NCBI GenBank assembly: GCA_963663165.1
Contig: OY760175.1
Location: 1,664,001-1,728,000, forward strand
Length of the DNA stretch: 64,000 bases
Direction: 5' to 3'
Origin: an uncultured Desulfospira sp.
GTDB taxonomy: Bacteria > Desulfobacterota > Desulfobacteria > Desulfobacterales > Desulfobacteraceae
Of the stretch, positions 15,713 through 43,805 are shown piece by piece. Positions within the stretch are counted from its first letter, which is position 1, and every line of letters begins with the position of its first letter. The notes beneath the pieces are model-generated. The model was not told where the DNA came from and ran no database searches. It saw only the letters and a list, made by a program, of their open reading frames with translations. The position numbers were made by a program, and so were the translations under genes.

Positions 15713-15749
15713 ATAACGGTTGACGTTATTATCGGATTGCGTTATCAAT
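15713..15749 (+). promoter_or_regulatory. higBA promoter with overlapping palindromic operator
   Basis: ATAACG-GTTGA-CGTTAT (15713-15729) overlaps TTGACG -35; TATCAAT follows 17 nt later. Confidence 0.6.
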
Positions 15750-15755
15750 TTACCC

Positions 15756-16037
15756 ATGATAAAATCTTTTCAAGATAAAGAAACGGAAAAGATATTCAAC
15801 CGGCAGATTTCAAAAAAACTGCCCCAGGATACCCAGCGTGTGGCACGCAAAAAATTGCTTATTCTTGATGCTGCGGTGCAATTAAATGATCTGCAAATAC
15901 CACCGGGCAATCGACTGGAAGCCTTGAAAGGAAATCGGAAAGGGCATCACAGCATACGAATCAATGACCAATGGCGGCTTTGTTTTAAATGGCAGGATGG
16001 AAATGCACATAACGCTGAAATAGCAGATTATCATTAG
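15756..16037 (+). CDS. higB: HigB (RelE/ParE family) toxin
   Basis: MIKSFQDKETEKIF...PPGNRLEALKGNRKGHHSIRINDQWRLCFKW...IADYH. Confidence 0.93.
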   Translation: MIKSFQDKETEKIFNRQISKKLPQDTQRVARKKLLILDAAVQLNDLQIPPGNRLEALKGNRKGHHSIRINDQWRLCFKWQDGNAHNAEIADYH

Positions 16038-16045
16038 GAGGATAT

Positions 16046-16351
16046 ATGAACCAAAAACTTGCCCCCATCCATCCCGGTGAAATTCTGATGGAAGAATTTT
16101 TAGAGCCCATGGGAATCAGCCAGTATCGGCTGGCCAAAGATATAAGCGTTCCCCCAAGGCGTATCAATGAAATTGTCCATGGAAAAAGATCCATTACCGC
16201 AGATACCGCGCTCAGACTCGGGCGTTTTTTTGGGATGTCGGCTCAATTCTGGCTGAATCTCCAGATAAGATACGACCTTGAAACAACTGAAAACGCTTTA
16301 GCACATAGACTTGATACTGAAGTTCAAGCGCTTCATGCCCAGGCGGGCTGA
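16046..16351 (+). CDS. higA: HigA antitoxin (XRE HTH)
   Basis: PIHPGEILMEEFL...RINEIVHGKRSITADTALRL...FWLNLQ; AGGAGG RBS; toxin-first gene order. Confidence 0.93.
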   Translation: MNQKLAPIHPGEILMEEFLEPMGISQYRLAKDISVPPRRINEIVHGKRSITADTALRLGRFFGMSAQFWLNLQIRYDLETTENALAHRLDTEVQALHAQAG

Positions 16352-24332: not shown

Positions 24333-27300
24333 TTACCCGTATTTATGGACCCCCAGTTTTTTCATCCGTGCCGCCAGGGTCGTCCGTTTCATTCCCAATA
24401 CCTCAGCGGCACCGCCTTTTCCGCTGATCCGGCCGTTTGTTATGTCAAGCACATAGGAAATATACCGCTGCTGCAGTTCATCCATGGTGGGCAGGTCTTC
24501 GAAGGGATTGCCGGCGGGGTTTATGTCTGCCTTTGGAAAAAGGTCTGTTCCCAAAAGGTTATCAGAGGAGAGCAGCACAGCGCATTCGACCACATTTTTC
24601 AACTCCCGGATATTGCCCGGCCAGTGATACTGTAAAAAATTGGCCTGGGCTTTTTCGCTGAACTGCAAGCTGGTTTTGCCATGTTTTTTTGAAAAATGCT
24701 TGAGAAAATGATTGGCCAGAAGCAGGATATCATCGCCCCGGTCCCGCAGGGGCGGCACTTTTATGGGAACCACATTGATCCGGTAAAACAGGTCTGCCCG
24801 GAACCTTCCCAAAAGCACGTCCTGTTCCAGATCCTGATTGGTGGCGGCCAAAAGCCTGAAATCCGTTTTTACGGTATTGGTCCCCCCCACGCGCACAACG
24901 CTTTTCTCCTGAAGCGCCCGCAGCAGTTTGCTTTGAATGGTGAGGGGGATATTGCCGATTTCATCAATAAACAGCGTGCCGCCGTTGGAAAGTTCCAGCC
25001 GCCCGAGCTTTCTTTGATCCGCGCCGGTAAATGCGCCCTTTTCATAGCCGAACAATTCACTTTCGATCAATGATTCGGCAATATTGCTGACATCCACCAC
25101 ATGGAAGGGTCCACTGCCCCGTTTCCGGTTCATCCGGTGCAGCCTTTGGGCCAGCAGTTCCTTGCCCACACCGGTTTCCCCCAAGATGAGAATGGAGGCA
25201 TCGGAGTCCGCGGCCTTGTCCGCCAATGACAGCAGTTTTTTCATTATGGGGCTTTCAGCCTTGAGTTCGCTGCCCGGAGAATGGCCGGCCGTGCTGGTCT
25301 GAACCGCTTTTTCATATGAAGACGCCATGATGCCTTCAAAATAGGTGGTCACACAGCTGATCAGGCGGCCCATGTACTGGCAGAGCACATCCAGTTCATT
25401 GCCGGACAGGCGGTCAAACGCCTTCTCGTCATAGGCATTGTCATAATAGAAAACCCCTTTGACCTGCCCGTCAATTTCCAGGGGCATGCACAGCACGGCC
25501 AACGGTGTGGTTTTAAGGTTCCGGGCCGATTTAAGCGCCTTTCGAATCAGAATGGTGCTGTTTTGCCTGAATGTTTTTTGAATGGCCAGCAGACTGTTCC
25601 GAAAGTCCTGTCTTAATGACTCTTCTTCAGACAGATTGTAGCCGACTTTATAGGCGGCCTTTTTGGGGTCAGGCGCGTCTTTCCAGAAAACGGCGCCCCG
25701 GGCCGCGCCAAAAAAATTGCCCACAATGGACAAAACCCGTTGAAGGAAAGAGTCCACATTGTGGCTTAAAATAAGCTTGTCCAGCGCATCAATAATTTTA
25801 TCCAGGTGGTTGTCCGCCGGCGGGGGCTGGTAAAAAACCGGCTGATCCACTTTTCTTTCAAGGGCCGGTCTTAAGTCCGGCGGAAAAAGGGCCGGATTAA
25901 CGCCGGTAAGCGACTCCCGCGCCATCAAAGAATAATTCCATGCCGACTCAAACTGTTTTTTTCTTAATTTAAACCGGGCGATTTCCACCAGGGTCTTACC
26001 AAGTTCTATGGGGTTCCCGGACTGTCTTAAATACTGCTCGCTGCGTTTAAACAAGGCCGCCACTTTCCGGGAATCATTATGCTGAAAAATGGCTTCCTTG
26101 GCCTTGAGCCTGAGGGCGACACCCCGCAGCATGACATTGGAACCGCCGGCTTTTGTTTCCAGCTCGCTTTCATAATCAAAGGCCGGTAAGGGACCGTATT
26201 TGAGCCGGTTGAACCCATACAGCATTTCAAGAAACCAGGGCCATGTGTACTGCCGGAACAGACAATTGTGGTCCATGGCCTCCGTCACCGCCTCCTGCAT
26301 CAGCTGATGGGCCTCCCGGGGCCTGTTTTCAAGATAATGAAAATAGGCAATGCCTATTTTTCCCCAGAGAATGGCATGCCGGTTTCCCCGGCTCTTTGCC
26401 CCCTCAAGCATTTCGCTCAGATGCCGGTAGGCCTCATCCGTTTTACCGGCGATCAGCAGGACGATGCCAAGATCACTTCTGAAGTGGTCGGCCAGGGCCG
26501 GTTCAGACCGGTATTGCGCCCTTCGAAAATTGGTGTCAAACACGCCGATGGCCCGATGAAACTGGCCGGTATAGGCGGCACATAAACCCAGCCAGTGGGG
26601 AATTAAAAAGGCCACCGGCCGGTCCTGGTTCAGCTCCACCCGTTGAAAGGCCTCTTCAAAAAAGGTGAGGGCTTCCTTGTGCATGCCCTTGAAAAAGTAA
26701 TATACCCCGGTAAATTCCGTTGACAAGGACTGGAAATCATCGCCCAGTGTCTTGGCAATATCCAGGGCTTTGCGGCTGGTTTCAATGGCCTCTTCAAACC
26801 GGTTCTCATGGCAGATATGCCTGACCTTATGCAGTTCGAGCAGGACGTTGGTATGGGTGTCCTTTCGCTGTACCGCGGCCTGCTGGGCCATATTCAACAA
26901 CTCAGGAATTTCATTGAGCCCTTCACCGGAGCAAAACCGAAGGTGAGACAGCTGCAGCACCGCCGAGGTAAATAAGTGCTGCTGTTTTAAATCTTCTCCC
27001 GGGGAGGGAATCCATGCCAGGGTCTGTTCAAAATGCGTCAGGGCTTTCCCAAGGTGCCCCTTTTCAAGGGCTTTATACCCGATCTCGTTTTCAATGGTGG
27101 CCGCTTCGGTGATTTTTCCGGACCAGTAATACAGGCTGGCCTGTATTTCCATATCCTCAGCTTCGGGCAGATCGGATTTTAACAGGCGGTCAAGAAAGGT
27201 GTCGGCAAGGTCGGGTGTACAGACTGAGGACAGTTTTGTTTGGACGGCGTCAGCAAGCTTTGAAGAAATGATATGGCATCCGCTGGGGGCTTCCCGGATG

Positions 27301-27461
27301 TAATTCATTTCAATGCCGCGGGTGATCAGCTCATTGAGCTTTGACGGCAAAAGCTTTGCCAGGACGGCAAGGACATCCGCTGATAACGGCCGGCCCAGCA
27401 TCCGCATGGCCGCAACCGCATGCCATTGGGAGACGGAGAATTCAAAACGGTGGGTTGACAT
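24333..27461 (-). CDS. sigma54-dependent transcriptional activator with TPR-like region and GAF domain
   Basis: GETGVGKE, ESELFGYEKGAFTGA, LFIDEIG, FRADLFYR, WPGNIREL and a C-terminal HTH. Confidence 0.92.
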   Translation of the reverse strand: MSTHRFEFSVSQWHAVAAMRMLGRPLSADVLAVLAKLLPSKLNELITRGIEMNYIREAPSGCHIISSKLADAVQTKLSSVCTPDLADTFLDRLLKSDLPEAEDMEIQASLYYWSGKITEAATIENEIGYKALEKGHLGKALTHFEQTLAWIPSPGEDLKQQHLFTSAVLQLSHLRFCSGEGLNEIPELLNMAQQAAVQRKDTHTNVLLELHKVRHICHENRFEEAIETSRKALDIAKTLGDDFQSLSTEFTGVYYFFKGMHKEALTFFEEAFQRVELNQDRPVAFLIPHWLGLCAAYTGQFHRAIGVFDTNFRRAQYRSEPALADHFRSDLGIVLLIAGKTDEAYRHLSEMLEGAKSRGNRHAILWGKIGIAYFHYLENRPREAHQLMQEAVTEAMDHNCLFRQYTWPWFLEMLYGFNRLKYGPLPAFDYESELETKAGGSNVMLRGVALRLKAKEAIFQHNDSRKVAALFKRSEQYLRQSGNPIELGKTLVEIARFKLRKKQFESAWNYSLMARESLTGVNPALFPPDLRPALERKVDQPVFYQPPPADNHLDKIIDALDKLILSHNVDSFLQRVLSIVGNFFGAARGAVFWKDAPDPKKAAYKVGYNLSEEESLRQDFRNSLLAIQKTFRQNSTILIRKALKSARNLKTTPLAVLCMPLEIDGQVKGVFYYDNAYDEKAFDRLSGNELDVLCQYMGRLISCVTTYFEGIMASSYEKAVQTSTAGHSPGSELKAESPIMKKLLSLADKAADSDASILILGETGVGKELLAQRLHRMNRKRGSGPFHVVDVSNIAESLIESELFGYEKGAFTGADQRKLGRLELSNGGTLFIDEIGNIPLTIQSKLLRALQEKSVVRVGGTNTVKTDFRLLAATNQDLEQDVLLGRFRADLFYRINVVPIKVPPLRDRGDDILLLANHFLKHFSKKHGKTSLQFSEKAQANFLQYHWPGNIRELKNVVECAVLLSSDNLLGTDLFPKADINPAGNPFEDLPTMDELQQRYISYVLDITNGRISGKGGAAEVLGMKRTTLAARMKKLGVHKYG

Positions 27462-27822: not shown

Positions 27823-29094
27823 TCATCGCCCATGGGTACCCGTGGCTTTGCCCGCTTTTTCCCAGGCCTTTTCCATGGCCGCAATCAACGGCAGTTTATC
27901 ACCGCTAAGAAAGCGCACCATGGCCCCGCCGGCGGTGCAGATGTAATCAATCTTTGAAAGATCAGTGAACCGGGATGCGGCACTCACACTGTCTCCGCCG
28001 CCAATAATACTGTAACCGGGCGCATCGGCAATGGCTCGCCACAGCTGCCTTGTGCCGGCGGCCCATTTGTCATCTTCAAAAGCGCCGGCAGGGCCGTTGA
28101 CAAAAACGGTGCCGGCCGTTGCAATGACCTGCCGGTATCGGTCAATGGTCCCGCTGCCGATATCCGGAAACAATACCGGCGGCAATGCCGCGGCAACGCC
28201 CGTTTCAGCCCGGCCTCCGTTGCCGTCATCGTATGCCAGGTCCTCAGGGAAGCGGATTTTCCCGGGGTAAGCGTTCAGATACTGCCTGGCCGGCCGGATA
28301 AACAGATCCAGGCTGCGCTTTTCTAAAAAGTCCTTGACGGCAGGGCCTAAATCTATGCCATGGGCCATGAGAAACACCAGGCCCGTGACACCGGCGGTCA
28401 GGATCATGTCCGCACTGCCGTTGGACAGGACCTGTTCCATCATTCCAAAGGCATCGGAAATCTTAGCCCCGCCAAGCAGAAAGACCGTCGGCCTGGCAGG
28501 CCTTTCCATCAGCGAGGACAGCACGCTGACCTCTTCAAAAAAGAGCCGGCCGGCCGCCGAGGGCAGCACCTCCTGAAAGGCCACCATACTCGGGGCATTC
28601 CGGTGGGCCGCCGCAAACGCGTCATTGACATAACAGTCAAACAATGGCGAAAGGCTGCGGACAATCCAGGTGCCGGCCATTTCTCCGGCTGTCAGGGGGA
28701 CATTGTTTTCAAAGGTGCTGACCTCTTCGGTCAGATACCGCAGGTTTCCTAAAATTACCAGGTCCCCGGGACCAAGTGCGGCCACGGCTTCTCTGGCAGC
28801 CGGCCCGCACACATCGTCGATATAGCCGACATGCCGCCCCAATAATCGGGTCAGGCGCGCCGCATGTTCAGCTAAGGGAATCAGGTTCTGATAGTCCAGG
28901 GTATCTCCCTGGTGGGCAATGATGGCGACGGCCGCCCCCTGGCCGATAAGGTATGCCAGGGTGGGCAGGCTTTTTTTAAGTCGGTTGTCATTGACAATGG
29001 TTTTGGTCTCAGGCTCCAGGGGAGAATTGATGTCAAGGCGGACCAGGACCTTTTTTTGGTACACATCAAGTTGTTTCAGGCTTAAAATTTTCAT
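27823..29094 (-). CDS. pgk: Phosphoglycerate kinase family protein (archaeal-like, variant substrate site)
   Basis: VRLDINSP, AHQGD, GNLRY, VNDAFAAAHR, LGGAKISD, NGPAGAFE, GGGDS, TAGGA. Confidence 0.88.
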   Translation of the reverse strand: MKILSLKQLDVYQKKVLVRLDINSPLEPETKTIVNDNRLKKSLPTLAYLIGQGAAVAIIAHQGDTLDYQNLIPLAEHAARLTRLLGRHVGYIDDVCGPAAREAVAALGPGDLVILGNLRYLTEEVSTFENNVPLTAGEMAGTWIVRSLSPLFDCYVNDAFAAAHRNAPSMVAFQEVLPSAAGRLFFEEVSVLSSLMERPARPTVFLLGGAKISDAFGMMEQVLSNGSADMILTAGVTGLVFLMAHGIDLGPAVKDFLEKRSLDLFIRPARQYLNAYPGKIRFPEDLAYDDGNGGRAETGVAAALPPVLFPDIGSGTIDRYRQVIATAGTVFVNGPAGAFEDDKWAAGTRQLWRAIADAPGYSIIGGGDSVSAASRFTDLSKIDYICTAGGAMVRFLSGDKLPLIAAMEKAWEKAGKATGTHGR

Positions 29095-29240
29095 GTCAGT
29101 TCCATGCCCGCAGGGCAATCATATGTGACCTTGCTACTGTTTAACTTTACCCAATGCCATGTCAGTGCGCAGCACGGACACGCTGTCCTGCTCAACTCCA
29201 AAAGTTTAAAATTTTGTTAAGCTTATTTTGGGGGAAATAA

Positions 29241-29288
29241 TATCTCCAATTAAGCAGGGAGACCGGAAACCGGAGACAGCGGACCGGA
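29241..29288 (+). repeat. ATCTCCAAT end motif followed by GAGACCG-type heptamers
   Basis: TATCTCCAATT...GGAGACCGGAAACCGGAGACAGCGGACCGGA. Confidence 0.5.
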
Positions 29289-29407
29289 TAGCAAATTCGT
29301 CGGATTGGCATCTTGCTCTGAATAGTTTGAGCAAGGGCAAGAAAACCAACCTTGTTGAGCGGGCCAAGCCCACAATTTATAAAACCAGGGGGTTAAAGAA
29401 GCATAAA

Positions 29408-30892
29408 TCAACCTTTTAATATGTCATACCAGGGTTTTTCAACTTCCCCGGTGGTGTCGATATAGATATGTTTGGTCAGGGTGTACTCTTCCAGAACCAT
29501 TTTGGACAGGTCCTTGCCCCAGCCCGATTCCTTGCACCCGCCCCATGGGGTATCGCAAAAAACAATCAGGTGCTCATTGATCCAGACGGTGCCGGCCTTG
29601 ATCTGCCCGGCCAGCCGGATGGCCGTTGCCGTATTTTTGCTCCAGACCGATGCCGACAACCCAAACGGTGTATCGTTCACCATGTTTACGGCATCTTGGG
29701 TCTCTTTGAACTTACAAAGCCCGGCCACAGGCCCGAAGATTTCCTCTCGCATAAACGGGGCGTTGTGGTCACAGTCTTTGAATATGGTGGGGGCCACAAA
29801 AAATCCGTCCTGGGTCTGTTCGGTTGCCGGGCGTTCTCCGCCCAACAGCAATGTGGCCCCGCTTTGTCTGGCATTTTCAATATAGCCTTCGACTTTATCC
29901 CTGTGGGCCTCATAAGCCACAGGCCCGATAACGGTTTCCATTTTTTCAGGATCACCCATCACCAGTTTTTTGGCCTCATCCGCAAATTTCTGGGCAAAGG
30001 ACTCATAAACGGATTCATGAATGTAAAACCGGCTGGCAGCGGCGCACACCTGTCCTGAATTGAAAAAAGCCCCAAAAACAGCCCCCTGAACCGCGGCATC
30101 CACATCAGCATCCGCCAGGACCACAAATGCGTTTTTCCCGCCCAGTTCCAGCCCGACCGGTTTGACATTATCGGCCGCCAGAGCCATGATCCGTTTTCCC
30201 GTGGACGTGTCTCCGGTAAAACCGATTTTGGCCACTTTGGGGTGTTTCACCAGGGCTTCGCCGATTTTGGCCCCGGGTCCGGGGATCACATTCACCACCC
30301 CGGCAGGGGCCCCGGCCTCGGTAAAGATCTCAGCCAGCTTCAAGGTGGTCAGCGGCGCAATGGACGGCGGTTTGATCACGCAGGTATTCCCGGTGACCAG
30401 GGCCGCACCAAGCTTCCAGACCACCATCAGGGCCGGAAAATTCCAGGGGGTAATCAGACCGACCACCCCTAAGGGCTCGTGAACCGTGGCGGACAGGCAC
30501 CAGGGACCCACGGGCAGGGTATCCCCGGTCATGGCCCGGGCCACACCGGCAAAATATTCAAGCTGCTCCGCACAAAGGGGCACATCAAAGTTCATGGTCT
30601 TGCGCAAGGGAGAGCCGTGCTCCATGGTCTCAAGCCTGGCCAGTTCCTCTTGTTTTTCCATGATCAGTTCAGAGGCTTTGAGCAATACTTTTGACCGGTC
30701 CGCCACCGGCGTGTCTGCCCATGCCGTGCCGCTCTTTTGAGCCGCGTCAACCGCCTTGTTCAAATCATCAATGCCGCAGCAGGCGACCCGGGCAACAACC
30801 TTCCCGTTGGCCGGATTGATAACGGGCGTCTTTTGTCCGTCCGTTGCGTCCACCCAGCAGCCGTTGATAAATGCCTTGTAATATTCCGTCAT
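29408..30892 (-). CDS. NAD(P)-dependent aldehyde dehydrogenase
   Basis: ITPWNFP, FTGDTSTG, LELGGKN, catalytic GQVC, EEIFGPV. Confidence 0.93.
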   Translation of the reverse strand: MTEYYKAFINGCWVDATDGQKTPVINPANGKVVARVACCGIDDLNKAVDAAQKSGTAWADTPVADRSKVLLKASELIMEKQEELARLETMEHGSPLRKTMNFDVPLCAEQLEYFAGVARAMTGDTLPVGPWCLSATVHEPLGVVGLITPWNFPALMVVWKLGAALVTGNTCVIKPPSIAPLTTLKLAEIFTEAGAPAGVVNVIPGPGAKIGEALVKHPKVAKIGFTGDTSTGKRIMALAADNVKPVGLELGGKNAFVVLADADVDAAVQGAVFGAFFNSGQVCAAASRFYIHESVYESFAQKFADEAKKLVMGDPEKMETVIGPVAYEAHRDKVEGYIENARQSGATLLLGGERPATEQTQDGFFVAPTIFKDCDHNAPFMREEIFGPVAGLCKFKETQDAVNMVNDTPFGLSASVWSKNTATAIRLAGQIKAGTVWINEHLIVFCDTPWGGCKESGWGKDLSKMVLEEYTLTKHIYIDTTGEVEKPWYDILKG

Positions 30893-30927
30893 TGTCTCTT
30901 CCTTCCTTTAGGGTATGGCCGTTGTAT

Positions 30928-31953
30928 TTATCGTGGGCAAAGGTTCAGGTACTGGTTGGTTTTGGCAAGCCCGTCCTCTCTTATGGTCTGCATTTTTGTG
31001 GCAGCCCGGACCGCATCAATGTTTTCCGGAATCACCACCGCTTCCTGGGGAATGTTGATGGCGAACATGATGTCGGCACCGGATTTAACCACACTTTCCT
31101 CAAAGACCGCAATTTCATACATATCCCCCCGGGGATTGCCCAGATCCCGGGCATATTTAAACAAACTGGCATTGCCCAAAAAGCCGTCTTCAATGCGCAC
31201 CACCCGGATCCGGGAATGGGCCCGGAAAATCTCTATCAATTTTTCTTTTGAGATATCCTGTCTGGTGGTGACCACGGGAACAATAATATGGCCGCATGTC
31301 ACCGGGGTATGGACCAGAATACCGGTGGCATCCACATGGGGCATGATGGTTTTCAGGTCCACGGCCTGATGATTGGGCGCCGGATCAACCTTCAGGGCAT
31401 CGGTCAGCCCGCGGTGGTAGTCGCCGGGATCAGACACCCGCCGGATAATGGTGATGGCGGTCTTAACGACCCCGGCTTCCCGGTCAATGGCGTCAATGGC
31501 CCGGATCAGGCCCGTGGTGTTGCAGCTGGTCAGTTTGAGATAATCCGCGCCCACGCCTTTTTCGTAATTGGCATACCCATGGAAAAAAATGTCCGCCACC
31601 TCGTTTTTCTCTCCGCCCTGAAACACGGCTTTGGTGTTGTACTGTTGATACACGGTTTTGTTTTTGGCCCCGATACCGGCGCTGGCGGCGTCCAGCATGA
31701 TGTCGGCCTCCTGAACCAGCGCCTCAAGGGTGCCGCTGACCGTGACGCCGGTCCGGGTCAGCAGGTCTATGTTTTCAGGTTGCGCGGTAAAAAATTTATA
31801 GGGCATGCCCCGTTCGGCAAGGGCGCGCACCGGCAGGGTCGGCGCGATATCCGCCACGCCGATAAGTTCCATGTCCTCCTGACGGCTGACACCGTCAGCC
31901 AGACGCTGTCCGATGACGCCGTAACCGGCGACACCGACTTTTACTTTGGTCAT
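30928..31953 (-). CDS. Type II (archaeal-type) glyceraldehyde-3-phosphate dehydrogenase family protein
   Basis: GYGVIGQRLAD, FQGGEK, SCNTTGL, IRRVSDP, RGDMYE, QEAVVIPENIDAVRA. Confidence 0.9.
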   Translation of the reverse strand: MTKVKVGVAGYGVIGQRLADGVSRQEDMELIGVADIAPTLPVRALAERGMPYKFFTAQPENIDLLTRTGVTVSGTLEALVQEADIMLDAASAGIGAKNKTVYQQYNTKAVFQGGEKNEVADIFFHGYANYEKGVGADYLKLTSCNTTGLIRAIDAIDREAGVVKTAITIIRRVSDPGDYHRGLTDALKVDPAPNHQAVDLKTIMPHVDATGILVHTPVTCGHIIVPVVTTRQDISKEKLIEIFRAHSRIRVVRIEDGFLGNASLFKYARDLGNPRGDMYEIAVFEESVVKSGADIMFAINIPQEAVVIPENIDAVRAATKMQTIREDGLAKTNQYLNLCPR

Positions 31954-32049: not shown

Positions 32050-33069
32050 TTAGGCCGCCTGGAACCCCGGCCTTTCAAGATCAATCTTCACCTTTAACGG
32101 CCCCTTTTCTCCCATGGTTTTGCCGATGGCATTGGCAATGCCCTGGGGGTTGGGCAGAACCACATGCTCCAGGGGGCCTGCGGGAACCGGCAGATTCGCG
32201 GCCGCCACCCGCTCAACCGGCGCCTTAAGGCTGCCCCATGCCTGTTCCATGATCAGCATGGAAAGTTCTCCGGTAACACCGCAGCGAAGGTTGTCTTCAT
32301 CCACAATGACCACCCGGCCCGTTTTGTTGACCGATGCCATGATGGTATCCATATCCAGGGGTTCAAGGGTTCTCAGGTCAATGACCTCAACGCTGATCCG
32401 GTCTTTCAGCGCCTGGGCCACGGCCAGGGCCATGTGCACCATATAGGAGGTGCAAAGCACCGTGACCTGTTCTCCGGGCATTTTGATATCGGCCTTGCCA
32501 AAGGCGATGGTGTACTCACCCTCGGGCACCTCGCCGGTGGTGTTCAGCAGCTGTTTATGGAACAGATACACCACCGGATTGTTGTCCCGTATGGCGGTTT
32601 TAAGCAGTCCCTTGGCATCATAAGGGGTTGAGGGAAGCGCTATTTTCAGCCCGGGCCGGTGCCATAAAAATCCTGACGGCACCTGGGAGTGCATCGGCCC
32701 GCCCCCGCTGTAACCGCCCACAGCCGCTTTAATGACCATGGGCACTCGGGTCCGGCCGCCGTTTGAAAACCGGTGGGTGGCGGCCTGATTCAGGATTTCA
32801 TCGGTGGCGCAGAACATGAAATCGGCGTACATGATATCCGCGATGGGCCGGTATCCGGCCAGTGCCGCCCCGACAGCGGCGCCCACAATAAAATTTTCGC
32901 TGATGGTGGTGTCCCGGATGCGCTCTTTGCCGAATTTTTCCACCAGCCCCTGATGGGTATTCCAGTTGTCCCGGCACATATTCTCGCCCAGAATAAACAC
33001 CTTCTCATCTCTTGCCATTTCTTCGGTAAAGGCTTCGTTGATGGCCTCTCTATAGGTGATGTCTCTCAT
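32050..33069 (-). CDS. 2-oxoacid/acetoin dehydrogenase E1 beta-like subunit
   Basis: ITYREAI, RIRDTTISENFIVGAAVGAA, PSTPYDAKGLL, EVIDLRTLEPLD; AGGAG upstream of ATG 33069. Confidence 0.9.
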   Translation of the reverse strand: MRDITYREAINEAFTEEMARDEKVFILGENMCRDNWNTHQGLVEKFGKERIRDTTISENFIVGAAVGAALAGYRPIADIMYADFMFCATDEILNQAATHRFSNGGRTRVPMVIKAAVGGYSGGGPMHSQVPSGFLWHRPGLKIALPSTPYDAKGLLKTAIRDNNPVVYLFHKQLLNTTGEVPEGEYTIAFGKADIKMPGEQVTVLCTSYMVHMALAVAQALKDRISVEVIDLRTLEPLDMDTIMASVNKTGRVVIVDEDNLRCGVTGELSMLIMEQAWGSLKAPVERVAAANLPVPAGPLEHVVLPNPQGIANAIGKTMGEKGPLKVKIDLERPGFQAA

Positions 33070-33136: not shown

Positions 33137-34117
33137 TTATTCAGCGTACAATGCGTCTTCTAAGATGCCCGGTTCGGCAACAGGGCTTTCATTGGCGAAT
33201 TTTTCCGCCGCCTGAATTTCCGCGGCCGCCTCATTATATATACGCTCAATGCCGGCCTGATCCAGAATGCCTTCTTTTTTGAGCGCTTCTTGAAACAGTT
33301 TAACAGGGTCCCTTTGTTTCCAGTGCGCCACCTCTTCTTCACTGCGCATGCCGTCCATGCAAAGGTCCGGGGCACCTTCAACCTGGGCGTTATACCGGCA
33401 GGTTTTCAATTCGATGAAACTTGGGCCCTCACCCTTTCGGGCCCTGTCTATAGCCGTCTTTGCGGCGTTGTGTACGGCGCATACATCCTGGCCGTCCACA
33501 ATTTCAGACGGGATATTGTACCCGAAGGCCCAGTCGGCAATGTTTTCTTTGGGATAAGCCACATCCACGGGCACCCACATGCTCATGCCGTTGTTGGAGC
33601 AGATCCAGATCAGCGGCAGCTTCCAGTTGGCGCTCATCAGCATGGCCGTATGGACACTGCCCTCGCCAATGGCGCCGTCACCGATAAAGCAGGCCACCAC
33701 CTGATTTTTATTGGCCAGTTTAGCGGCAAGGGCCACACCGCCGGCCAGGGTGGCCTCTCCGCCCACAGTGCCGCCCATGCCGAATATGCCTTTATCCGGG
33801 CTGCACGTGTTGATAAACCCGATGCCCCGGCATGAGCCGGTTTCTTTTCCATAATGTTCGGCAACAATTTGTCTTGCCGGCACCCCTTTGGACAACACCT
33901 CGCAAATGCCGTGGCCCCGGTGGGTGTACCAGACATAATCGTCCTCATTTAAAAAGGTGCAGACCCCGACACCGATGGCTTCCTGGCCCTGCTGGCTGTG
34001 GTAGAACGGGCCGGCCAGCTTTTTGGTGAAATAGGCGTCCACAAGGAATTCATCCAGGGCCCTGACCCGGACCATGTTGGTATAAAGTTCTAATTTCTGT
34101 TTTTTGTCTAATCCCAT
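33137..34117 (-). CDS. ThDP-dependent dehydrogenase E1 alpha-like subunit
   Basis: HSQQGQEA, THRGHG, ThDP motif GDGA...NN, VDGQD, GPSFIE. Confidence 0.9.
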   Translation of the reverse strand: MGLDKKQKLELYTNMVRVRALDEFLVDAYFTKKLAGPFYHSQQGQEAIGVGVCTFLNEDDYVWYTHRGHGICEVLSKGVPARQIVAEHYGKETGSCRGIGFINTCSPDKGIFGMGGTVGGEATLAGGVALAAKLANKNQVVACFIGDGAIGEGSVHTAMLMSANWKLPLIWICSNNGMSMWVPVDVAYPKENIADWAFGYNIPSEIVDGQDVCAVHNAAKTAIDRARKGEGPSFIELKTCRYNAQVEGAPDLCMDGMRSEEEVAHWKQRDPVKLFQEALKKEGILDQAGIERIYNEAAAEIQAAEKFANESPVAEPGILEDALYAE

Positions 34118-34132
34118 AACATTGTCCTTCTT

Positions 34133-35020
34133 TTATGATTCTATGGTTGTGTTGGACATTAACTCCAGTAACTTGACGATACCCGAATGATCCCAGTCCT
34201 TGCCGCCATCCTGGGCCAAAGCCGCATTCCACAGCTGGGACATCATGGATACCCCGGGCAGATAAAGGTTCATTTTCAACGCCGCATCAAGGGCGATCCG
34301 GGTATCTTTTTGGTGAATGCCGACCCTGGCACCGGGGGTGAACTGCCGCCGGGTCATTCGCCGGCCGTGAACCTCCAGGACCCGGCTCTGGGCAAACCCG
34401 CCCATGAGGGCGGCGCGCACTTTTTCAGGATCAACCCCTGACCGGGAGGCCATTAACAGGGCTTCGGCAACCGCCTCAATGGACAGGGCCACGATCATCT
34501 GGTTGGCGCATTTGGCAATCTGTCCGGCACCGCTGTCCCCCACATGGCTGATATTCCGGCCCATGGCCTTAAATACGGGCAGCATCCGGTTAAAGGCGTC
34601 CTCATTGCCGCCGGCCATGATGGACAGCGTGGCCTCCTGAGCGCCGACATCGCCGCCGCTGACCGGGGCATCCAGTAAAAACGCCCCTTTTCTTCGAAAC
34701 AGCGGCGCCATTTTCCGGGGCAGATCCGGCGACGTGGTGCTCATATCAATGGCCACGGCCTCCGGTTCTATCCCTTCCAGAATACCGTTTTCCCCAAGGC
34801 AGACCGACTCGACAACCCGGTCATCGGGCAGTATCGTAATGACGGCGTCGGCTGATTGCGCCGCATCAGCGGGCGAATCCGCTATTTGGGCCCCTGATTT
34901 TGCCAATATTTGAGACGGCTCAGGGCTTCGGTTGAACACCTTGACGGAAAACCCTTTTTGGATAAGGTTTTTCGCCATGGGCCGCCCCATAATGCCCAGG
35001 CCGATAAATCCGATTTTCAA
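34133..35020 (-). CDS. beta-hydroxyacid dehydrogenase (2-hydroxy-3-oxopropionate reductase-like)
   Basis: TTG start after AAGGGGG; IGFIGLGIMG, DMSTTSP, LDAPVSGG, AKCANQ, GGFAQSRVLEVHG. Confidence 0.88.
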   Translation of the reverse strand: MKIGFIGLGIMGRPMAKNLIQKGFSVKVFNRSPEPSQILAKSGAQIADSPADAAQSADAVITILPDDRVVESVCLGENGILEGIEPEAVAIDMSTTSPDLPRKMAPLFRRKGAFLLDAPVSGGDVGAQEATLSIMAGGNEDAFNRMLPVFKAMGRNISHVGDSGAGQIAKCANQMIVALSIEAVAEALLMASRSGVDPEKVRAALMGGFAQSRVLEVHGRRMTRRQFTPGARVGIHQKDTRIALDAALKMNLYLPGVSMMSQLWNAALAQDGGKDWDHSGIVKLLELMSNTTIES

Positions 35021-35033
35021 TTGATCCCCCTTT

Positions 35034-35480
35034 TTACGGCTCATCATATTGTGCCAGTTCAACGATTAACTGTTCGGGCCCCAAGATATAGGTCGCCCAG
35101 ACACCCGGCCGCAAATTCTGGGGGGCTGTGGTAAACCTGGCCCCGCTGTTGAGCATCTGCCCGTAGGCCTTATCAATATCGGCCACCTTAAGGCAGATAT
35201 GGGTAAAACCGTGGTCGCACTGTCTGAACGCGGCCCGGGGCTCCCCCTCAGGGTGCTTAAATTTTAACAGCTCAATATGGACCCCGTAGCCTTTAAGGAG
35301 AACCACATGAGCCTTGACATCTTCCAGTCCGATGACCTTGTCCAAAGGCTCTCCCGAACGGTTCGGATCTTCGATTTCAACTTCAAACCCTAATTTTTCA
35401 CAGAAAAAAGAGACCATTTTTTCCATATCGCCCACAGAGACGGCGACATGGTGAAATGCCGTTACACCCAATGTATTCAT
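35034..35480 (-). CDS. VOC (glyoxalase/epimerase) family protein
   Basis: FHHVAVSV, IELL, THICLKV, IVELAQ metal-ligand pattern. Confidence 0.85.
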   Translation of the reverse strand: MNTLGVTAFHHVAVSVGDMEKMVSFFCEKLGFEVEIEDPNRSGEPLDKVIGLEDVKAHVVLLKGYGVHIELLKFKHPEGEPRAAFRQCDHGFTHICLKVADIDKAYGQMLNSGARFTTAPQNLRPGVWATYILGPEQLIVELAQYDEP

Positions 35481-35493
35481 GAACAACTCCCCT

Positions 35494-36804
35494 TTAACGG
35501 ACCAGTATTTTCGGCAGCCAGAGTGAAAGAATGGGAAACGCCACAAGGATGGTCAGCCGGACAAAATCCGCCAGCAAAAATGGAATGATGCCGATAAACA
35601 GCGTCTTTAAGGGATACTGTTCTTTGATAATCCCGTGCAGCATATAAATGTTGATTCCCATGGGCGGGGTGATCATTCCGATCTCAACCAGCACAATATT
35701 GACAATGCCCCACCAGATGGGCGAATACCCCATGCTGATGATCAGGGGCAGCACAAAGGGCATGGTGATCACCATGGCGCCCACGGTATCGAAAATACTG
35801 CCCAGAATGATATAGACCGCCATCAATATAAACAGGATCATAAAATTGGGCAGACCCGACTGAATGATGGTGTTGGCCAGGGTGTCCGGAAAATGCGTGA
35901 TCACAATATAATAATTGAACACCGCGGATCCCAGCAAAATAACATATATCATGGCGGTGTTGTTGGCCGTGTTGACCAGGGCGCCCCAGAACCTTTCCCA
36001 GGTCATCTGCCCTTTGACCAGGGCCAGCAGAAAAGACAGAATCACCCCCAGGGACGCCGCTTCAGTGACGGTGAACACCCCGCCGTATATCCCGAAGGCA
36101 ATGGTCCCGATCAGGACCACGGCAACCCAGCTTCTGGACAGCATTCTGAACCGTTCTGCCCAGGGCAGGGCTTCTGTGGCCGGGCCAGAGTCCGGATATA
36201 TCTTCACATAAATGGCAATGGCAACAAAATAAAGCAAAATGGTGACAATGGCCGGAATAATGGCGGCCACAAAGAGCTCCACAATAAACTGTTCGGATAA
36301 AACCGCATACATGACCAGGATGACCGAAGGCGGAACCAGTGACCCCAGGGTTCCCCCGCCGCCGATACTGCCGGTGGAAAGGGAGGGGGAGTATCCCCTC
36401 TGGGTCATTTCCGGCAGGGCGATGCGGCCGAAAGTGGCCGTCGTGGCCACGGAAGACCCGCAAACCGCGCCGAACAGGCCGCAGCCGCCCACCGTGGCCA
36501 TGGCCAGGCCGCCGCGCCGGTGGCCTAAGAAAGCGGAGGCGATATTGTACATATCCGTGGAAATACCGCCGGCCACGGCAAAATTGCCCATCAGGACAAA
36601 CAGCGGCACCACGGCCAGATCCATGTTGGCAATATTTCGAACCGCCTCTGTGGCCAGAATGGATGACCCCGTATGGAACGAGGCGGTCATCAGGCTGTAG
36701 CCCACCACGCCGACAACGGCCATGGATATGCCGATGGGCACGTGAAGGGCGATCAGAATGAACATGACTAAAATGGCTAAAATGGCAAGGGTAAACGGGC
36801 TCAT
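35494..36804 (-). CDS. dctM: TRAP transporter large permease
   Basis: VPLFVLMG, GAVCGSSVAT, GTLGSLVPPS, EIGMITPPMGIN. Confidence 0.92.
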   Translation of the reverse strand: MSPFTLAILAILVMFILIALHVPIGISMAVVGVVGYSLMTASFHTGSSILATEAVRNIANMDLAVVPLFVLMGNFAVAGGISTDMYNIASAFLGHRRGGLAMATVGGCGLFGAVCGSSVATTATFGRIALPEMTQRGYSPSLSTGSIGGGGTLGSLVPPSVILVMYAVLSEQFIVELFVAAIIPAIVTILLYFVAIAIYVKIYPDSGPATEALPWAERFRMLSRSWVAVVLIGTIAFGIYGGVFTVTEAASLGVILSFLLALVKGQMTWERFWGALVNTANNTAMIYVILLGSAVFNYYIVITHFPDTLANTIIQSGLPNFMILFILMAVYIILGSIFDTVGAMVITMPFVLPLIISMGYSPIWWGIVNIVLVEIGMITPPMGINIYMLHGIIKEQYPLKTLFIGIIPFLLADFVRLTILVAFPILSLWLPKILVR

Positions 36805-36811
36805 AGACTTC

Positions 36812-37336
36812 TCATGATTGAAGTGGTTTTTGATTTTCTGGTTCAAATTTGACGGCAGCGCCCACGGCGCTGAAAAAACAAACCAGCTCAATGGGAATGC
36901 AAAGGGTAATCAGCACTGCCGCCGCCAGCCACCAGGGGTAAAGAGGGATATGAACGATCCAGGTGCTCTCATGGGTTCCCATGAGCTCCAGGGCATATTT
37001 CCAGAGCTGAACCGTTAAAAATGTAAAAAACACCAGGGAAATAAGGGCACTGAAAGCGTCGAACAGGTGGCGGGTTCTGCCGCCGATGGCGGTCCCCAGC
37101 ACATTGACATTAATATGGGCGCGTTCAACGCTTGTCAGAGGGAAACAAGCGGTCACGATAACAACGACAATCAACTCCGACGCATCATAAATCCCCAGAA
37201 TGGATATTCCGAACACGGCCCTGAGCAACACCGCCCCTACCGTGATAACCGACAGGCAAAGCAATCCGATAAGGCCGATCAGTGACAGCCGTGTCGACCA
37301 CTTTGCGATCTTTTCCTCAATACGTTTCAGTGCCAT
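36812..37336 (-). CDS. dctQ: TRAP transporter small permease
   Basis: Four TMs, HINVN motif; lies between dctP and dctM. Confidence 0.88.
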   Translation of the reverse strand: MALKRIEEKIAKWSTRLSLIGLIGLLCLSVITVGAVLLRAVFGISILGIYDASELIVVVIVTACFPLTSVERAHINVNVLGTAIGGRTRHLFDAFSALISLVFFTFLTVQLWKYALELMGTHESTWIVHIPLYPWWLAAAVLITLCIPIELVCFFSAVGAAVKFEPENQKPLQS

Positions 37337-37351
37337 TATGATCCCTTTGTT

Positions 37352-38365
37352 TTATTTGTTTTCAGCCCGGACGGCCTCAAGTTCGTTCATGTATTGCTCG
37401 AGCAGTTCCGTGCGCCCGCTTTCCTTTCCCGCCCACCATTCCAGCGTGGGTTTCAAGGCGTCTTTCCATTGCTGGACTTCCCCGGCGGTCAGCTTGATAA
37501 TCTGGGTCTTTGGATCGGTTTGGGCCATGTCGTACAACTCTTTGCCATGGTCGACAACGGCCTGCTGCCACATCAATCCAAGCTTGGGCCCGTTTTCGAG
37601 AATGGCTGACTGCGCCTTTTCAGGAAGGCTGTCAAACTTGGGCCGGTTCATGACCACAGCCAGGGGAAAGGTGCCCAGAGGGGCCACGGTATGGTATTTG
37701 GCCACATCGGCAACCCTGAAGGTAATGACGGCGCTGTCGTCATTAATGGTGCCTTCGATGACGCCGCGGCTTAAATTCTCAGCGGCCTGAACATATTGCA
37801 TGGCCACGGGAACCGCGCCGAGGTTGTGAAGCACCTGGGCCCAGAAGTCATTTCCCGCCCGGATTTTGCGCCCTTTGATGTCCTCAGGCACCCGCACCGG
37901 GAAAGTAGTATGCAAATGAAACACATCGGTGGTGTAATGGGCAACGCAGATCAGGTCTCCCGTATATCCTTTGAGCAGCCCCTTGTCCAGCATGCGCTGG
38001 GAGGCAATGGTGGATTCAAACCCGTTTTCGGCAATCCCCGGCAGGGTGAACACCTCGTCCTGGGGGAACCGTCCCTGGACATAGGGCGGATTAAAATAGG
38101 TCAGATCGGCCACCCCGTCAGCCACCAGTTTGGCCTGTACCCGTGAATCCCGGCCCAGGGTCCCGCCGGGATAGACCTGGATTTTCACGGTTCCTTGGGA
38201 TGCTTTTTCAACAATTTCACACCAGGGCTCGTAGGCCTTTTTAACGGTTGGGGCCTGGGCGGAATCCACCACCGCAAATTTCAAGGTTACCGGATTGGCC
38301 AGCGCTGACTGACCGATGAATAACGCAAACACTGCCAATAAAACTGAAAAACAACCCTTTTTCAT
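37352..38365 (-). CDS. dctP: TRAP transporter substrate-binding protein
   Basis: Signal peptide; VYPGGTLG, GRFP, EDIKGRKIR (conserved carboxylate-binding Arg), LSRGVIEG. Confidence 0.9.
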   Translation of the reverse strand: MKKGCFSVLLAVFALFIGQSALANPVTLKFAVVDSAQAPTVKKAYEPWCEIVEKASQGTVKIQVYPGGTLGRDSRVQAKLVADGVADLTYFNPPYVQGRFPQDEVFTLPGIAENGFESTIASQRMLDKGLLKGYTGDLICVAHYTTDVFHLHTTFPVRVPEDIKGRKIRAGNDFWAQVLHNLGAVPVAMQYVQAAENLSRGVIEGTINDDSAVITFRVADVAKYHTVAPLGTFPLAVVMNRPKFDSLPEKAQSAILENGPKLGLMWQQAVVDHGKELYDMAQTDPKTQIIKLTAGEVQQWKDALKPTLEWWAGKESGRTELLEQYMNELEAVRAENK

Positions 38366-38505: not shown

Positions 38506-39474
38506 TTATGCCTCCTTTTTTCGGGTGATCTGGTGAAACACTTTAAGCTGCATCAGCAGATGGGTATTAATGTCATTTCGAATTTCTTGAATATCCCTGC
38601 CGCTGTAATCATACCAGCCCTTTCCGGATTTAATGCCAAGCTCGCCGCGCCGTACTTTTTCCCGCAGGGATTCGGCGGCTTCCGTCCGGTTGCTCAATGT
38701 CTTGTAAATCAGGTCCGACACCCGCTCAGCCGTATCCAGCCCGATCACATCTTCGGCTTCCATGGGCCCAAGACAGGCCAGCCGGAACCCGTAGCTGGCC
38801 TTTAACACCGCATCCAGGTCCTCAGGGGTGACAATGCCTTCATCCAGCAGATAATCCACCTCCCTTTCCACGGCCCCCTGGAGCCGGTTGACGATAAAGC
38901 CGGGGACCTCTTTGCGGACCAGGGCCGGGGTTTTACCGGCCCTGACCATTAAGGCCCTTGTCAGATCCAGTGTTTCCCTTGACGTCTGCTTTGCCCGGTG
39001 AATCTCAACCGCCGGAATGATATGGGCCGGGTTAAAATAGTGAAGCCCCACCACCCGCTGGGGGTTATTCACGCCATCGGCCATGGGGGTCATGGTTAAA
39101 CTGCCGGTATTGCTGGCCAGGATTGCCTCTTTGGGGGCGGCGTTCCCCAGGCGGGCAAACAGCGCCTTCTTAAGATCAAGGACTTCAGGGATACTCTCCA
39201 CCACGAACTGGCAGCCGCTGACCACCGTGTCCAGGTCTGCCAGCAGATGCGGTTTGATCCTTCCCAGGATATCAGGGATCTCATCTTTCAGAAGGCCGTG
39301 GGCCTCAAGCAATTCCAGGTTGGCCTGAATCTGTGTATGGGCGCCATCCAGGGCGGATGCGGCCTGGTCAATCAACCGCACTGAAAACCCGGCCTGGGCA
39401 AACCCCTGAGCAATGCCGCTGCCCATGATACCGGCACCGATGACCGCTATATCCGTTATGTCTTCAAGCTTCAT
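38506..39474 (-). CDS. 3-hydroxyacyl-CoA dehydrogenase family protein
   Basis: GAGIMGSGIA, ESIPE, ASNTG, GLHYFNP, GFIVNRL, GELGIKSGKGWYDY. Confidence 0.9.
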   Translation of the reverse strand: MKLEDITDIAVIGAGIMGSGIAQGFAQAGFSVRLIDQAASALDGAHTQIQANLELLEAHGLLKDEIPDILGRIKPHLLADLDTVVSGCQFVVESIPEVLDLKKALFARLGNAAPKEAILASNTGSLTMTPMADGVNNPQRVVGLHYFNPAHIIPAVEIHRAKQTSRETLDLTRALMVRAGKTPALVRKEVPGFIVNRLQGAVEREVDYLLDEGIVTPEDLDAVLKASYGFRLACLGPMEAEDVIGLDTAERVSDLIYKTLSNRTEAAESLREKVRRGELGIKSGKGWYDYSGRDIQEIRNDINTHLLMQLKVFHQITRKKEA

Positions 39475-39498: not shown

Positions 39499-40494
39499 TT
39501 AGGGTTTGATCACCGTGTTGCGCAGAATGCCGATGCCTTCCACTTCGAGTTCTATGGTATCCCCGGGCTTGATCCATCGGTCCATTTCATCGCCGCATCC
39601 GTTCATGGGAGTGCCGGAGCCGATAAAATCACCCGGATAAAGGGTTTCCGACTGTGAAATCCATTCGATGATCTGGGGGAACCGCCAGAACATGTCCGAG
39701 GTCCTGGCCGAGGACCAGACCTCGCCGTTGATCCGGGCTTCCATTTTAATGTCCGAGACATCGAGCTCATCGGCCGTGACCATGCAGGGGCCCATGATAT
39801 ACCCGGTGGCCATATCCTTGCCTTTGCCCGGCCCAAGAAAGGTGCTGACGTCCTCGGTGAGGACGTCCCGGGCGCTGATATCATTAAAAATCGTATAACC
39901 GGCAATGTATTCGTGGGCTTTGTCTGCCGGGATATCCCTGCCCTGTTTGCCGATATAGATGCCAAATTCCAGTTCATAGTCCAGCTTGTTTGTAAAGGGC
40001 GGCCAGACCACGGGCTCATCCGGGCCGATCACGTTGCCCGGATTGCCCTTGTAGTAGGACGGCCGCTGATACCAGACCGGGGGACTGGGTTTTCCGGTAA
40101 TCTTTTCAAAATTTTTCATATGCCCTTCAAAACTCATGGTATCCCGGACCAAATGGGGTTTTGGCACCGGGGCATGAAGGGTGACCTGATCCGGGGAAAA
40201 CACCACCTGCTCCCCCTGGGGGCCTGTAATGTCCTGCCCGCCGGCCAGGTGTTTGCCGACATAGCCGGCTGTTTCATCGGCGGCATCCCTTGACAGCTGA
40301 CCGCCCTTTAGAAATTCGAGCATGTCCGGGGGCAGCAGTCCTGCAGCAATCTCGTATGCCCGGCCTGTTTTCCGGGATCCGGACAGCAGACTGACATATC
40401 CCATATTCAGGTCAATGATCCGGTTGTTTGCCAGCATGCCCATGCGGATATGTTTGCCCGCCGGGGTCCGGAAGCTGAATGTGACAAGTTTCAT
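39499..40494 (-). CDS. Fumarylacetoacetate hydrolase family protein
   Basis: LDYELE, GYTIFNDISARD, GKGKD, PGDFIGSGTP, GIGILRN. Confidence 0.9.
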   Translation of the reverse strand: MKLVTFSFRTPAGKHIRMGMLANNRIIDLNMGYVSLLSGSRKTGRAYEIAAGLLPPDMLEFLKGGQLSRDAADETAGYVGKHLAGGQDITGPQGEQVVFSPDQVTLHAPVPKPHLVRDTMSFEGHMKNFEKITGKPSPPVWYQRPSYYKGNPGNVIGPDEPVVWPPFTNKLDYELEFGIYIGKQGRDIPADKAHEYIAGYTIFNDISARDVLTEDVSTFLGPGKGKDMATGYIMGPCMVTADELDVSDIKMEARINGEVWSSARTSDMFWRFPQIIEWISQSETLYPGDFIGSGTPMNGCGDEMDRWIKPGDTIELEVEGIGILRNTVIKP

Positions 40495-41197: not shown

Positions 41198-41235
41198 AAA
41201 AGGGGGCCTTCAGATAGCTCTTTTGGGCCCCCTTT
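41198..41235 (-). terminator. Probable intrinsic terminator after the IOR gene
   Basis: AAAGGGGGCC...GGCCCCCTTT stem with T4 tail on the minus strand. Confidence 0.6.
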
Positions 41236-43765: not shown

Positions 43766-43805
43766 TGATATCTCCTTATTAAAATTAGATGTATAGTTTA
43801 TATAT

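Follow-up and report, generated by a model that had tools for sequence, protein, structure and literature searches.

The window analysed here comprises 64,000 nucleotides of contig OY760175.1 (positions 1,664,001 to 1,728,000, forward strand) from an uncultured Desulfospira sp., whose genome (G000) consists of one contig and is 96.7% complete. Its minus strand carries an operon whose genes are ordered as a fumarylacetoacetate hydrolase (FAH) family protein, a 3-hydroxyacyl-type dehydrogenase, a TRAP transporter (DctP, DctQ and DctM), a VOC-family protein, a tartronate semialdehyde reductase-like enzyme, the alpha and beta subunits of a thiamine diphosphate (ThDP)-dependent E1 enzyme, a glyceraldehyde-3-phosphate dehydrogenase (GAPDH), an aldehyde dehydrogenase (ALDH) and a phosphoglycerate kinase (PGK). 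An earlier reading of the window, made from its letters and called here the sequence-only reading, had described type II GAPDH, ALDH and PGK in a catabolic operon that has no further glycolytic gene, and the operon is built in this way. The GAPDH and PGK (genes gap and pgk) are the subject of this work and form a real, conserved pair, which probably has a new activity for two textbook folds.

The PGK-like enzyme starts at an ATG (an alternative TTG at 29118 would give 431 residues) and belongs to the PF00162 fold family, with a match of 332.6 bits. Its closest solved structure is the archaeal PGK of P. horikoshii, 2cun (278 bits vs 192 for the next), and an AlphaFold2 model made with an 85-row alignment (pLDDT 94) has the two-domain PGK fold, with a TM score of 0.86 to 2cun, while a single-sequence fold (pLDDT 36) was thrown out. 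The structure matches of the model also include 1qpg, the yeast PGK mutant R65Q. In PGK, Arg65, Arg122 and Arg170 bind the 3-phosphate and Asp23 and Asn25 bind the 2-hydroxyl group, according to the available text of PMC7729029. Within this Arg trio, only the equivalent of Arg65 is lost in the window enzyme, which therefore lacks the complete basic patch of canonical PGK: bases 28903-28905 are ATC on the forward strand, which is GAT in the gene, and encode the Asp64 of the motif AHQGDT. The other substrate residues, Asp21, Asn23, Arg38, His61, Arg119, His164 and Arg165, are retained, in line with the claim of otherwise intact catalytic motifs. The contrast that the sequence-only reading drew with a canonical H(L/Q)GR is right about the Asp replacement but not about Arg as a universal residue of canonical enzymes, since 2cun has HQGK. 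Taken alone, the exchange of Arg for Asp would be no proof of a new substrate.

The GAPDH-like enzyme passes both type II cut-offs (TIGR01546, 292.8 vs 232.9; NF003251, 395.6 vs 185 bits), retains the catalytic Cys144 and His222, and has four archaeal enzymes, and no others, as its solved relatives. Position 35 is Asp in 133 of 134 members of its clade and Lys in 6/6 archaeal enzymes; by a rule that we assume to apply here, Asp35 marks a preference for NAD, and the clade enzymes probably use NAD in the oxidative direction. Gln196 and His220 are found in all 136 clade sequences. The gene context argues against glyceraldehyde 3-phosphate (GAP) as the physiological substrate of the window enzyme.

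A search for separate housekeeping copies, proposed with the sequence-only reading, found, elsewhere in the genome, an HLGRP-type pgk (513 bits) and, next to tpi, a class I gap. The genome thus has two matches to each of the PGK and GAPDH families, and the window PGK is neither the only nor the housekeeping PGK of the cell. The variant is an additional copy elsewhere too: among 50 carrier genomes (50 of the 54 first listed), 44 contain another full-length PGK that scores above 430 bits, four a fragmentary second copy and two a single match. The motif HQGD[T/S] is present in all of the best 120 of 5951 protein matches. Of 80 loci from genomes and 80 from metagenomes, 139 with a clade gene were kept; those of the window itself, L005, which is nearly identical, and 20 outgroup loci were excluded. 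Position 64 of PGK at 129 clade loci is Asp (98), Ser (29), Gly (1) or Asn (1) and never Arg, which stands there in 14/14 outgroup PGKs, and the clade PGKs retain the ligands of the 2-hydroxyl and carboxyl groups and the two other Arg residues. Both genes occur together at 129 loci and are adjacent at 128 of them; at the remaining one (L036) a malic enzyme and LarA intervene. In a FastTree phylogeny, the 121 clade sequences of sufficient length fall into a single group (support 0.999) placed within the archaeal PGKs. Phylogeny and co-occurrence had both been suggested as checks, and the co-occurrence of the PGK variant with type II GAPDH holds.

Both window genes belong to this clade, and the PGK shares the loss of Arg65 and departs from the clade-invariant residues only by Asp27Glu. 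Unlike the two genes at 128 of the 129 other loci, they are not adjacent, being parted by the ALDH gene and a repeat region. The sister group of the window PGK (0.999) is made up of L006, L007 and L086, which all have a transketolase, two of them together with a D-malate/tartrate dehydrogenase. Since the closest loci are from Spirochaetes, horizontal transfer is likely; a search of 250 other genomes from the order of the window organism turned up no member of the module GAPDH clade (one 36% match). Carriers include many anaerobes (Spirochaetes, Clostridia, Actinobacteria, Gammaproteobacteria and Dehalococcoidia), whose annotations give the two genes simply as GAPDH and PGK. The Spirochaetia genome G404 holds four copies of the pair (L009, L014, L017 and L029) in differing sugar-catabolic contexts, plus a canonical PGK. 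Single-frame fusions are also found, PGK-LarA of 848 aa (L008, 9950-12493) and LarA-GAPDH of 814 aa (L023, 6100-8541).

The neighbouring genes at the 139 loci include, downstream, two types of outlet. LarA is present on 50 loci, malic enzyme on 31 and either or both on 55, while a tartrate/D-malate dehydrogenase family occurs on 19 and never overlaps with the LarA/malic enzyme outlet. The LarA of a representative module has the malate racemase Mar2 as best solved match (456 vs 256 bits), and of seven module LarAs tested, six score above the LarAH6 cut-off for malate racemase; a second LarA subtype, on 18 loci, falls below it. All 8 tested module dehydrogenases score best as TIGR02089, five of them above its cut-off. 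D-malate is the suggested product because it is common to both outlet types. Upstream, a split transketolase is encoded on 46 loci and IolD on 31, and loci with transketolase never carry E1 (3 loci), HpcH aldolase (11) or aminotransferase (8). A recurring Spirochaete cluster (L008, L011, L015, L022, L029 and L045) joins the pair with an Ldh2-family dehydrogenase, an IolN-like hydrolase, a fucose-isomerase-like protein, a UroD-like protein, an HpcH aldolase and a member of the Asp/Glu racemase family.

In inositol catabolism, IolG, IolE, IolD and IolB yield 2-deoxy-5-keto-D-gluconate, from which a transketolase that takes the C2 ketol unit would leave (R)-3-hydroxy-4-oxobutanoate. This compound, which transamination of 4-amino-3-hydroxybutyrate also gives, differs from GAP by bearing a carboxylate where GAP has its phosphate ester, and its oxidation leads to D-malate. 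Only 2 of 16 module genomes chosen for their iol genes pass the cut-off for the IolC kinase. As a control, 399 Clostridia genomes were scored, of which 21 have IolD, or 20 after exclusion of the centre genome; among these 20 unselected genomes the module is present in 6/9 that lack IolC and 0/11 that bear it (Fisher 0.002), a value that, like the other one obtained (5e-5), overstates the association, since relatives are not independent of one another and many of the loci are truncated. Inositol itself was rejected as the substrate in the window organism, whose genome has no match to IolB, IolD, IolE or IolG.

From these sequences, the clade, and the gene associations and absences, we infer every reaction of the following scheme, in which GAPDH/PGK would be a catabolic substrate-level phosphorylation module of archaeal GAPDH/PGK descent. 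The GAPDH-like enzyme, probably with NAD+, and phosphate would convert a non-phosphorylated 2-hydroxyaldehyde with a far-end carboxylate to the 1-acyl phosphate; this aldehyde is most likely (R)-malic semialdehyde (3-hydroxy-4-oxobutanoate, OHC-CHOH-CH2-COO-), the look-alike of GAP. The PGK-like enzyme would then transfer the phosphate to ADP, giving D-malate and ATP. In most genomes the aldehyde would come from transketolase acting on 2-deoxy-5-ketogluconate, in an inositol route that does without the IolC kinase, or from an aminotransferase or aldolase, and D-malate would leave through malate racemase and malic enzyme or through D-malate dehydrogenase. In the window operon, an acid imported by TRAP may be turned into an alpha-hydroxyketone by the FAH-family protein, two dehydrogenases and the VOC protein, and the E1 enzyme may cleave this ketone non-oxidatively to two aldehydes, of which the acid one would pass to GAPDH/PGK and the second, neutral one to ALDH. 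D-malate could be taken on by a module-type racemase, a malic enzyme and a fumarase that are encoded at other sites of the genome.

That the pair acts on a non-phosphorylated aldehyde with a gain of ATP is very probable on these grounds. The formation of D-malate and ATP from malic semialdehyde in the window operon, as modelled above, is given a probability of about 0.55. The sequence-only reading had proposed that an aldehyde lacking the 3-phosphate is converted through an acyl phosphate to an acid, with formation of ATP, which stands as the best reading. It had listed neutral aldehydes, but the neighbours point to a carboxylate look-alike of GAP. A wider proposal, which might be called carboxylate glycolysis, is tentative: GAPDH/PGK would be a phosphorylating D-malic semialdehyde dehydrogenase and D-malate kinase in a natural fermentation of ketols that yields ATP and spares the ATP of a kinase, and in this sulfate reducer the E1 enzyme with its Gln would represent a new class of lipoyl-independent ketol lyases that free the aldehydes, possibly from a ring-opened aromatic or cyclitol acid.

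The genome has no E1 pair besides that of the window, and no match to the E2 family (PF00198) was found in the whole contig at its 96.7% completeness. E1 alpha Gln245 aligns opposite human His263, which we take to be the equivalent of Geobacillus His271. The latter assists acyl transfer to lipoate, as the accessible part of PMC2663715 describes. The window enzyme thus lacks both the E2 partner and the reductive-acylation His of 2-oxoacid and acetoin dehydrogenase complexes. Among E1 alpha relatives of at least 58% identity, Gln is found in 39/54, while below 58% His is found in 62/65, and His is kept in 15/15 E2-linked E1 loci. Relatives at 45-50% adjoin E2, SDR and Zn-alcohol dehydrogenases. 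The window E1 would carry out non-oxidative ketol cleavage, or a decarboxylation, that releases aldehydes, in the role that transketolase has elsewhere, and the alpha subunits of the Gln type (window 33137-34117 and P0122-P0160) are candidate lipoyl-independent ThDP lyases. No close relative of the operon's Gln-type E1 context was found among 400 genomes of the phylum, 150 of the family and 300 of the class Dehalococcoidia; the complete operon is present in 1 of the 150 other family genomes searched.

Other contexts of E1 relatives were also seen. At L231 (G1169:C56:422-10615), the genes right after E1 alpha and beta encode DhaL, DhaK, an ABC importer and an aldehyde:ferredoxin oxidoreductase. 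In sulfate reducers (L233, G1147:C1:7289-7300 kb, and L205), E1/E2(/E3) lie with an SDR, an M24 peptidase and a molybdopterin enzyme, clusters that resemble the hydroxyhydroquinone ring-cleavage cluster. A hydroxyhydroquinone route was rejected for the window, as the 48-49% E1 relatives adjoin E2, M24 peptidase and molybdoenzyme (L233), none of which is in the operon. A phloroglucinol route was also rejected, as its ring hydrolase is described in PMC10470551 as belonging to the cyclase family and not to FAH.

The ALDH had been proposed as a bypass that yields no ATP, a role for which the evidence is weak. ALDH occurs on 2 of the 139 loci and never between gap and pgk, and a paralog of it sits in another TRAP operon of the genome. 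According to the accessible text of PMC11353897, malic semialdehyde dehydrogenase clamps the carboxylate of its substrate by Arg166 and Arg284; the window ALDH has Trp159 and Phe277 at these positions, and so lacks both Arg residues, as judged by a numbering offset and not by alignment (the offset was set from the catalytic Glu/Cys, 256/290 in malic semialdehyde dehydrogenase and 249/283 in the window). The ALDH is a local insertion that probably serves another aldehyde, the second fragment, rather than a bypass. The repeats between it and pgk show raised depth and loose ends in contigs. The operon that holds the paralog (L165, G000:C1:4796-4805 kb) encodes an iron alcohol dehydrogenase, TRAP, a beta-hydroxyacid dehydrogenase, GntR and the ALDH paralog, and is also found in G1130 (L230).

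Table 1. Features of the operon and its flank in the window, with their predicted functions.
Feature	Position	Strand	Remarks
Sigma-54 activator (TPR-GAF-AAA), downstream of pgk	24333..27461	-	possible link to operon
PGK-like acyl-phosphate:ADP kinase (predicted), HQGD clade	27823..29094	-	423 aa; Asp64 codon 28903-28905
Intergenic patchwork of genome-wide repeats between ALDH and pgk	29095..29407	.	53 further blastn matches in G000
ALDH, local insertion	29408..30892	-	494 aa; paralog at G000:C1:4803249, 86% identity
Type II (archaeal-type) phosphorylating GAPDH-like dehydrogenase	30928..31953	-	341 aa; Cys144 and His222 kept
ThDP-dependent E1 beta subunit	32050..33069	-	profile matches
ThDP-dependent E1 alpha subunit	33137..34117	-	Gln245 at position of human His263; no E2 found in genome
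Beta-hydroxyacid dehydrogenase, tartronate semialdehyde reductase-like	34133..35020	-	324 bits vs cut-off 340.75
VOC/glyoxalase-family protein	35034..35480	-	family match
TRAP transporter DctM, DctQ, DctP	35494..38365	-	family matches
3-hydroxyacyl-CoA dehydrogenase-family NAD dehydrogenase	38506..39474	-	under all equivalog cut-offs
FAH-family protein, opens the gene run	39499..40494	-	family match

Searches with the FAH, VOC, DctP, 3-hydroxyacyl dehydrogenase and ALDH proteins yielded answers at family level. A sigma-54 promoter pattern matched 61 times, with 81 matches expected, and never upstream of FAH, and the promoter and terminator scan gave a result at chance level. Upstream of the operon, a fused indolepyruvate ferredoxin oxidoreductase (837 aa) lies behind an ADP-forming acyl-CoA synthetase (41252-45890), and a hairpin at 41199-41235 parts these genes from the operon. 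A small gene pair at 15720-16351 resembles a HigB/HigA-type toxin-antitoxin module, as judged from the translation.

Besides the overstated Fisher values, several observations weigh against the scheme proposed above. Genes for a racemase, malic enzyme, D-malate dehydrogenase or transketolase are missing from the operon, as are iol genes, and the genome has LeuB and no tartrate/D-malate dehydrogenase. It does encode LarC, an NAD-malic enzyme, a fumarase and a LarA (C1:4111.5 kb) that shares 55-59% identity with module-linked LarAs and branches among them, but this LarA is 2.4 Mb from the window, and its subtype scores 372 vs the LarAH6 cut-off of 500. The two IolC-bearing genomes among the 16 (G401 and G402) are the closest to the window among those tested, 13 of 32 iol loci show no transketolase within the DNA fetched, and L231 keeps the His of its E1 although its genome has no E2. 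The window GAPDH has Cys220, Lys201 and Asp185 where the clade has His220 (136/136), Met201 (135/136) and Asn185 (130/136), departures that none of its three closest relatives shows. Tartrate is described as an additional substrate of malate racemases and of the outlet dehydrogenase family in the accessible text of PMC11770544 and PMC11353897, and since the outlets accept it, tartrate semialdehyde may be an alternative substrate. Near the LarA gene (L166, 4977-8749; G000:C1:4109-4113 kb), an FAD 2-hydroxyacid dehydrogenase and an Fe-S/FlpD protein precede the LarA, which is of the uncharacterised subtype that accompanies the module elsewhere.

Because of the changes at His220, Met201 and Asn185 of GAPDH, which a near-identical strain (L216) shares, a shifted substrate or an early decay of the module has to be considered. 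A shift is possible, if doubtful: the same acyl-phosphate chemistry may serve tartrate semialdehyde, tartronate semialdehyde or glyceraldehyde in this lineage. As an example, E1 could split a 3-keto acid, made by the 3-hydroxyacyl-type dehydrogenase, and release tartronate semialdehyde together with another aldehyde. Glycerate would then be the point at which the tartronate semialdehyde reductase-like enzyme meets GAPDH/PGK, with ALDH in the proposed role of a bypass. His220Cys, Met201Lys and Asn185Asp fit such a shift, as do the tartronate semialdehyde reductase of the operon, which is near its cut-off and has a counterpart on only 1 of the 139 other loci, the MOFRL-type glycerate kinase of the genome and the lack of a D-malate gene in the operon. 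The PGK, with its single departure from the clade invariants and with Arg119, Arg165 and His61 kept, favours a far-end anion instead, and the presence of a module-type racemase in the genome also speaks for malic semialdehyde.

It is improbable that the module is a leftover in which the inserted ALDH took over aldehyde oxidation while GAPDH and PGK decay. In favour of decay, GAPDH shows three departures from columns conserved to at least 97%, more than 128/134 clade members do, repeat elements sever pgk from the operon, and the gap gene differs from that of the near-identical strain by 3 non-synonymous and 4 synonymous changes, compared with 0 non-synonymous changes in both E1 genes, the reductase and FAH; the gap gene of L216 also has a one-base deletion. 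Against decay, the window shows two intact frames that encode all catalytic residues, the deletion is not in the short-read contigs X3, X4 and X6 of a similar strain, and the differences in PGK are conservative (9 synonymous and 4 non-synonymous), though all these numbers are small. Least probable are ordinary GAP/3-phosphoglycerate isoenzymes for triose phosphate made by the pathway: both proteins pass the family cut-offs, two of the three basic-patch Arg residues remain, 2cun, with Lys at the Arg65 site, is listed with bound 3-phosphoglycerate, and yeast PGK Arg65 mutants reportedly remain active, but such enzymes would be redundant beside the housekeeping copies, and even fourfold in one genome (G404), the operon has no sugar kinase, and such isoenzymes would not explain the kinase-free contexts, why the module and IolC exclude each other, or why no locus has both D-malate outlets.

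If the malic semialdehyde reading is right, the module would represent an unrecognised type of substrate-level phosphorylation. It would also give genomes devoid of IolC an inositol route that needs no kinase, would provide the nickel-pincer malate racemases with a physiological D-malate source, and would be a natural case of the malate kinase chemistry that has hitherto been engineered. To our knowledge, PGK is treated as a single-substrate enzyme. The window would add a variant of the module in which the thiamine enzyme has no E2 and the substrate may have shifted. No account of the GAPDH-II/PGK pair or of a natural malate kinase was found in the literature searched, with most subscription journals and supplements outside the search, and the accessible text of the paper on an engineered malyl-4-phosphate pathway states that neither a malate kinase nor a malate semialdehyde dehydrogenase activity had been reported previously (PMC5481828).

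Among known systems, the archaeal type II GAPDHs (P. horikoshii 2czc and M. fervidus 1cf2) share with the clade the fold family, the catalytic Cys in SCNTTG, the RR motif, the catalytic His and TIGR01546, whereas the bacterial clade has Asp35 for Lys, Gln196 for His and His220 (Cys in the window) for Leu, and its enzyme is accessory and stands beside an altered PGK. The archaeal PGK 2cun is 37% identical to the window PGK and has the same 2-hydroxyl, carboxyl and nucleotide-site residues, whereas the Arg65 equivalent of the clade is Asp, or Ser with a neighbouring Asp, in an invariant HQGDTLDY or HQGSD loop, and the clade enzyme is a second copy alongside a canonical PGK. The E1 alpha2beta2 of 2-oxoacid and acetoin dehydrogenases has the same alpha and beta folds and ThDP motif as the window E1, which differs by the absence of an E2 family match in its genome and by Gln at the His of acyl transfer to lipoate. 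The carnitine route of Acinetobacter baumannii leads, in the accessible account, from malic semialdehyde to D-malate and pyruvate by an ALDH and a decarboxylating D-malate dehydrogenase (PMC11353897); it has in common with the module the proposed aldehyde and product and, on 19 loci, the downstream dehydrogenase family, but it uses one non-phosphorylating ALDH and gains no ATP, while the module would take two steps via an acyl phosphate. The engineered malyl-4-phosphate pathway, as far as its available description goes (PMC5481828), shares the malate kinase and malate semialdehyde dehydrogenase chemistry proposed here, and it employs aspartate kinase and Asd on the C4 carboxyl of L-malate in the reductive direction, whereas the module would act with GAPDH and PGK folds on the C1 carboxyl of D-malate in the oxidative direction.

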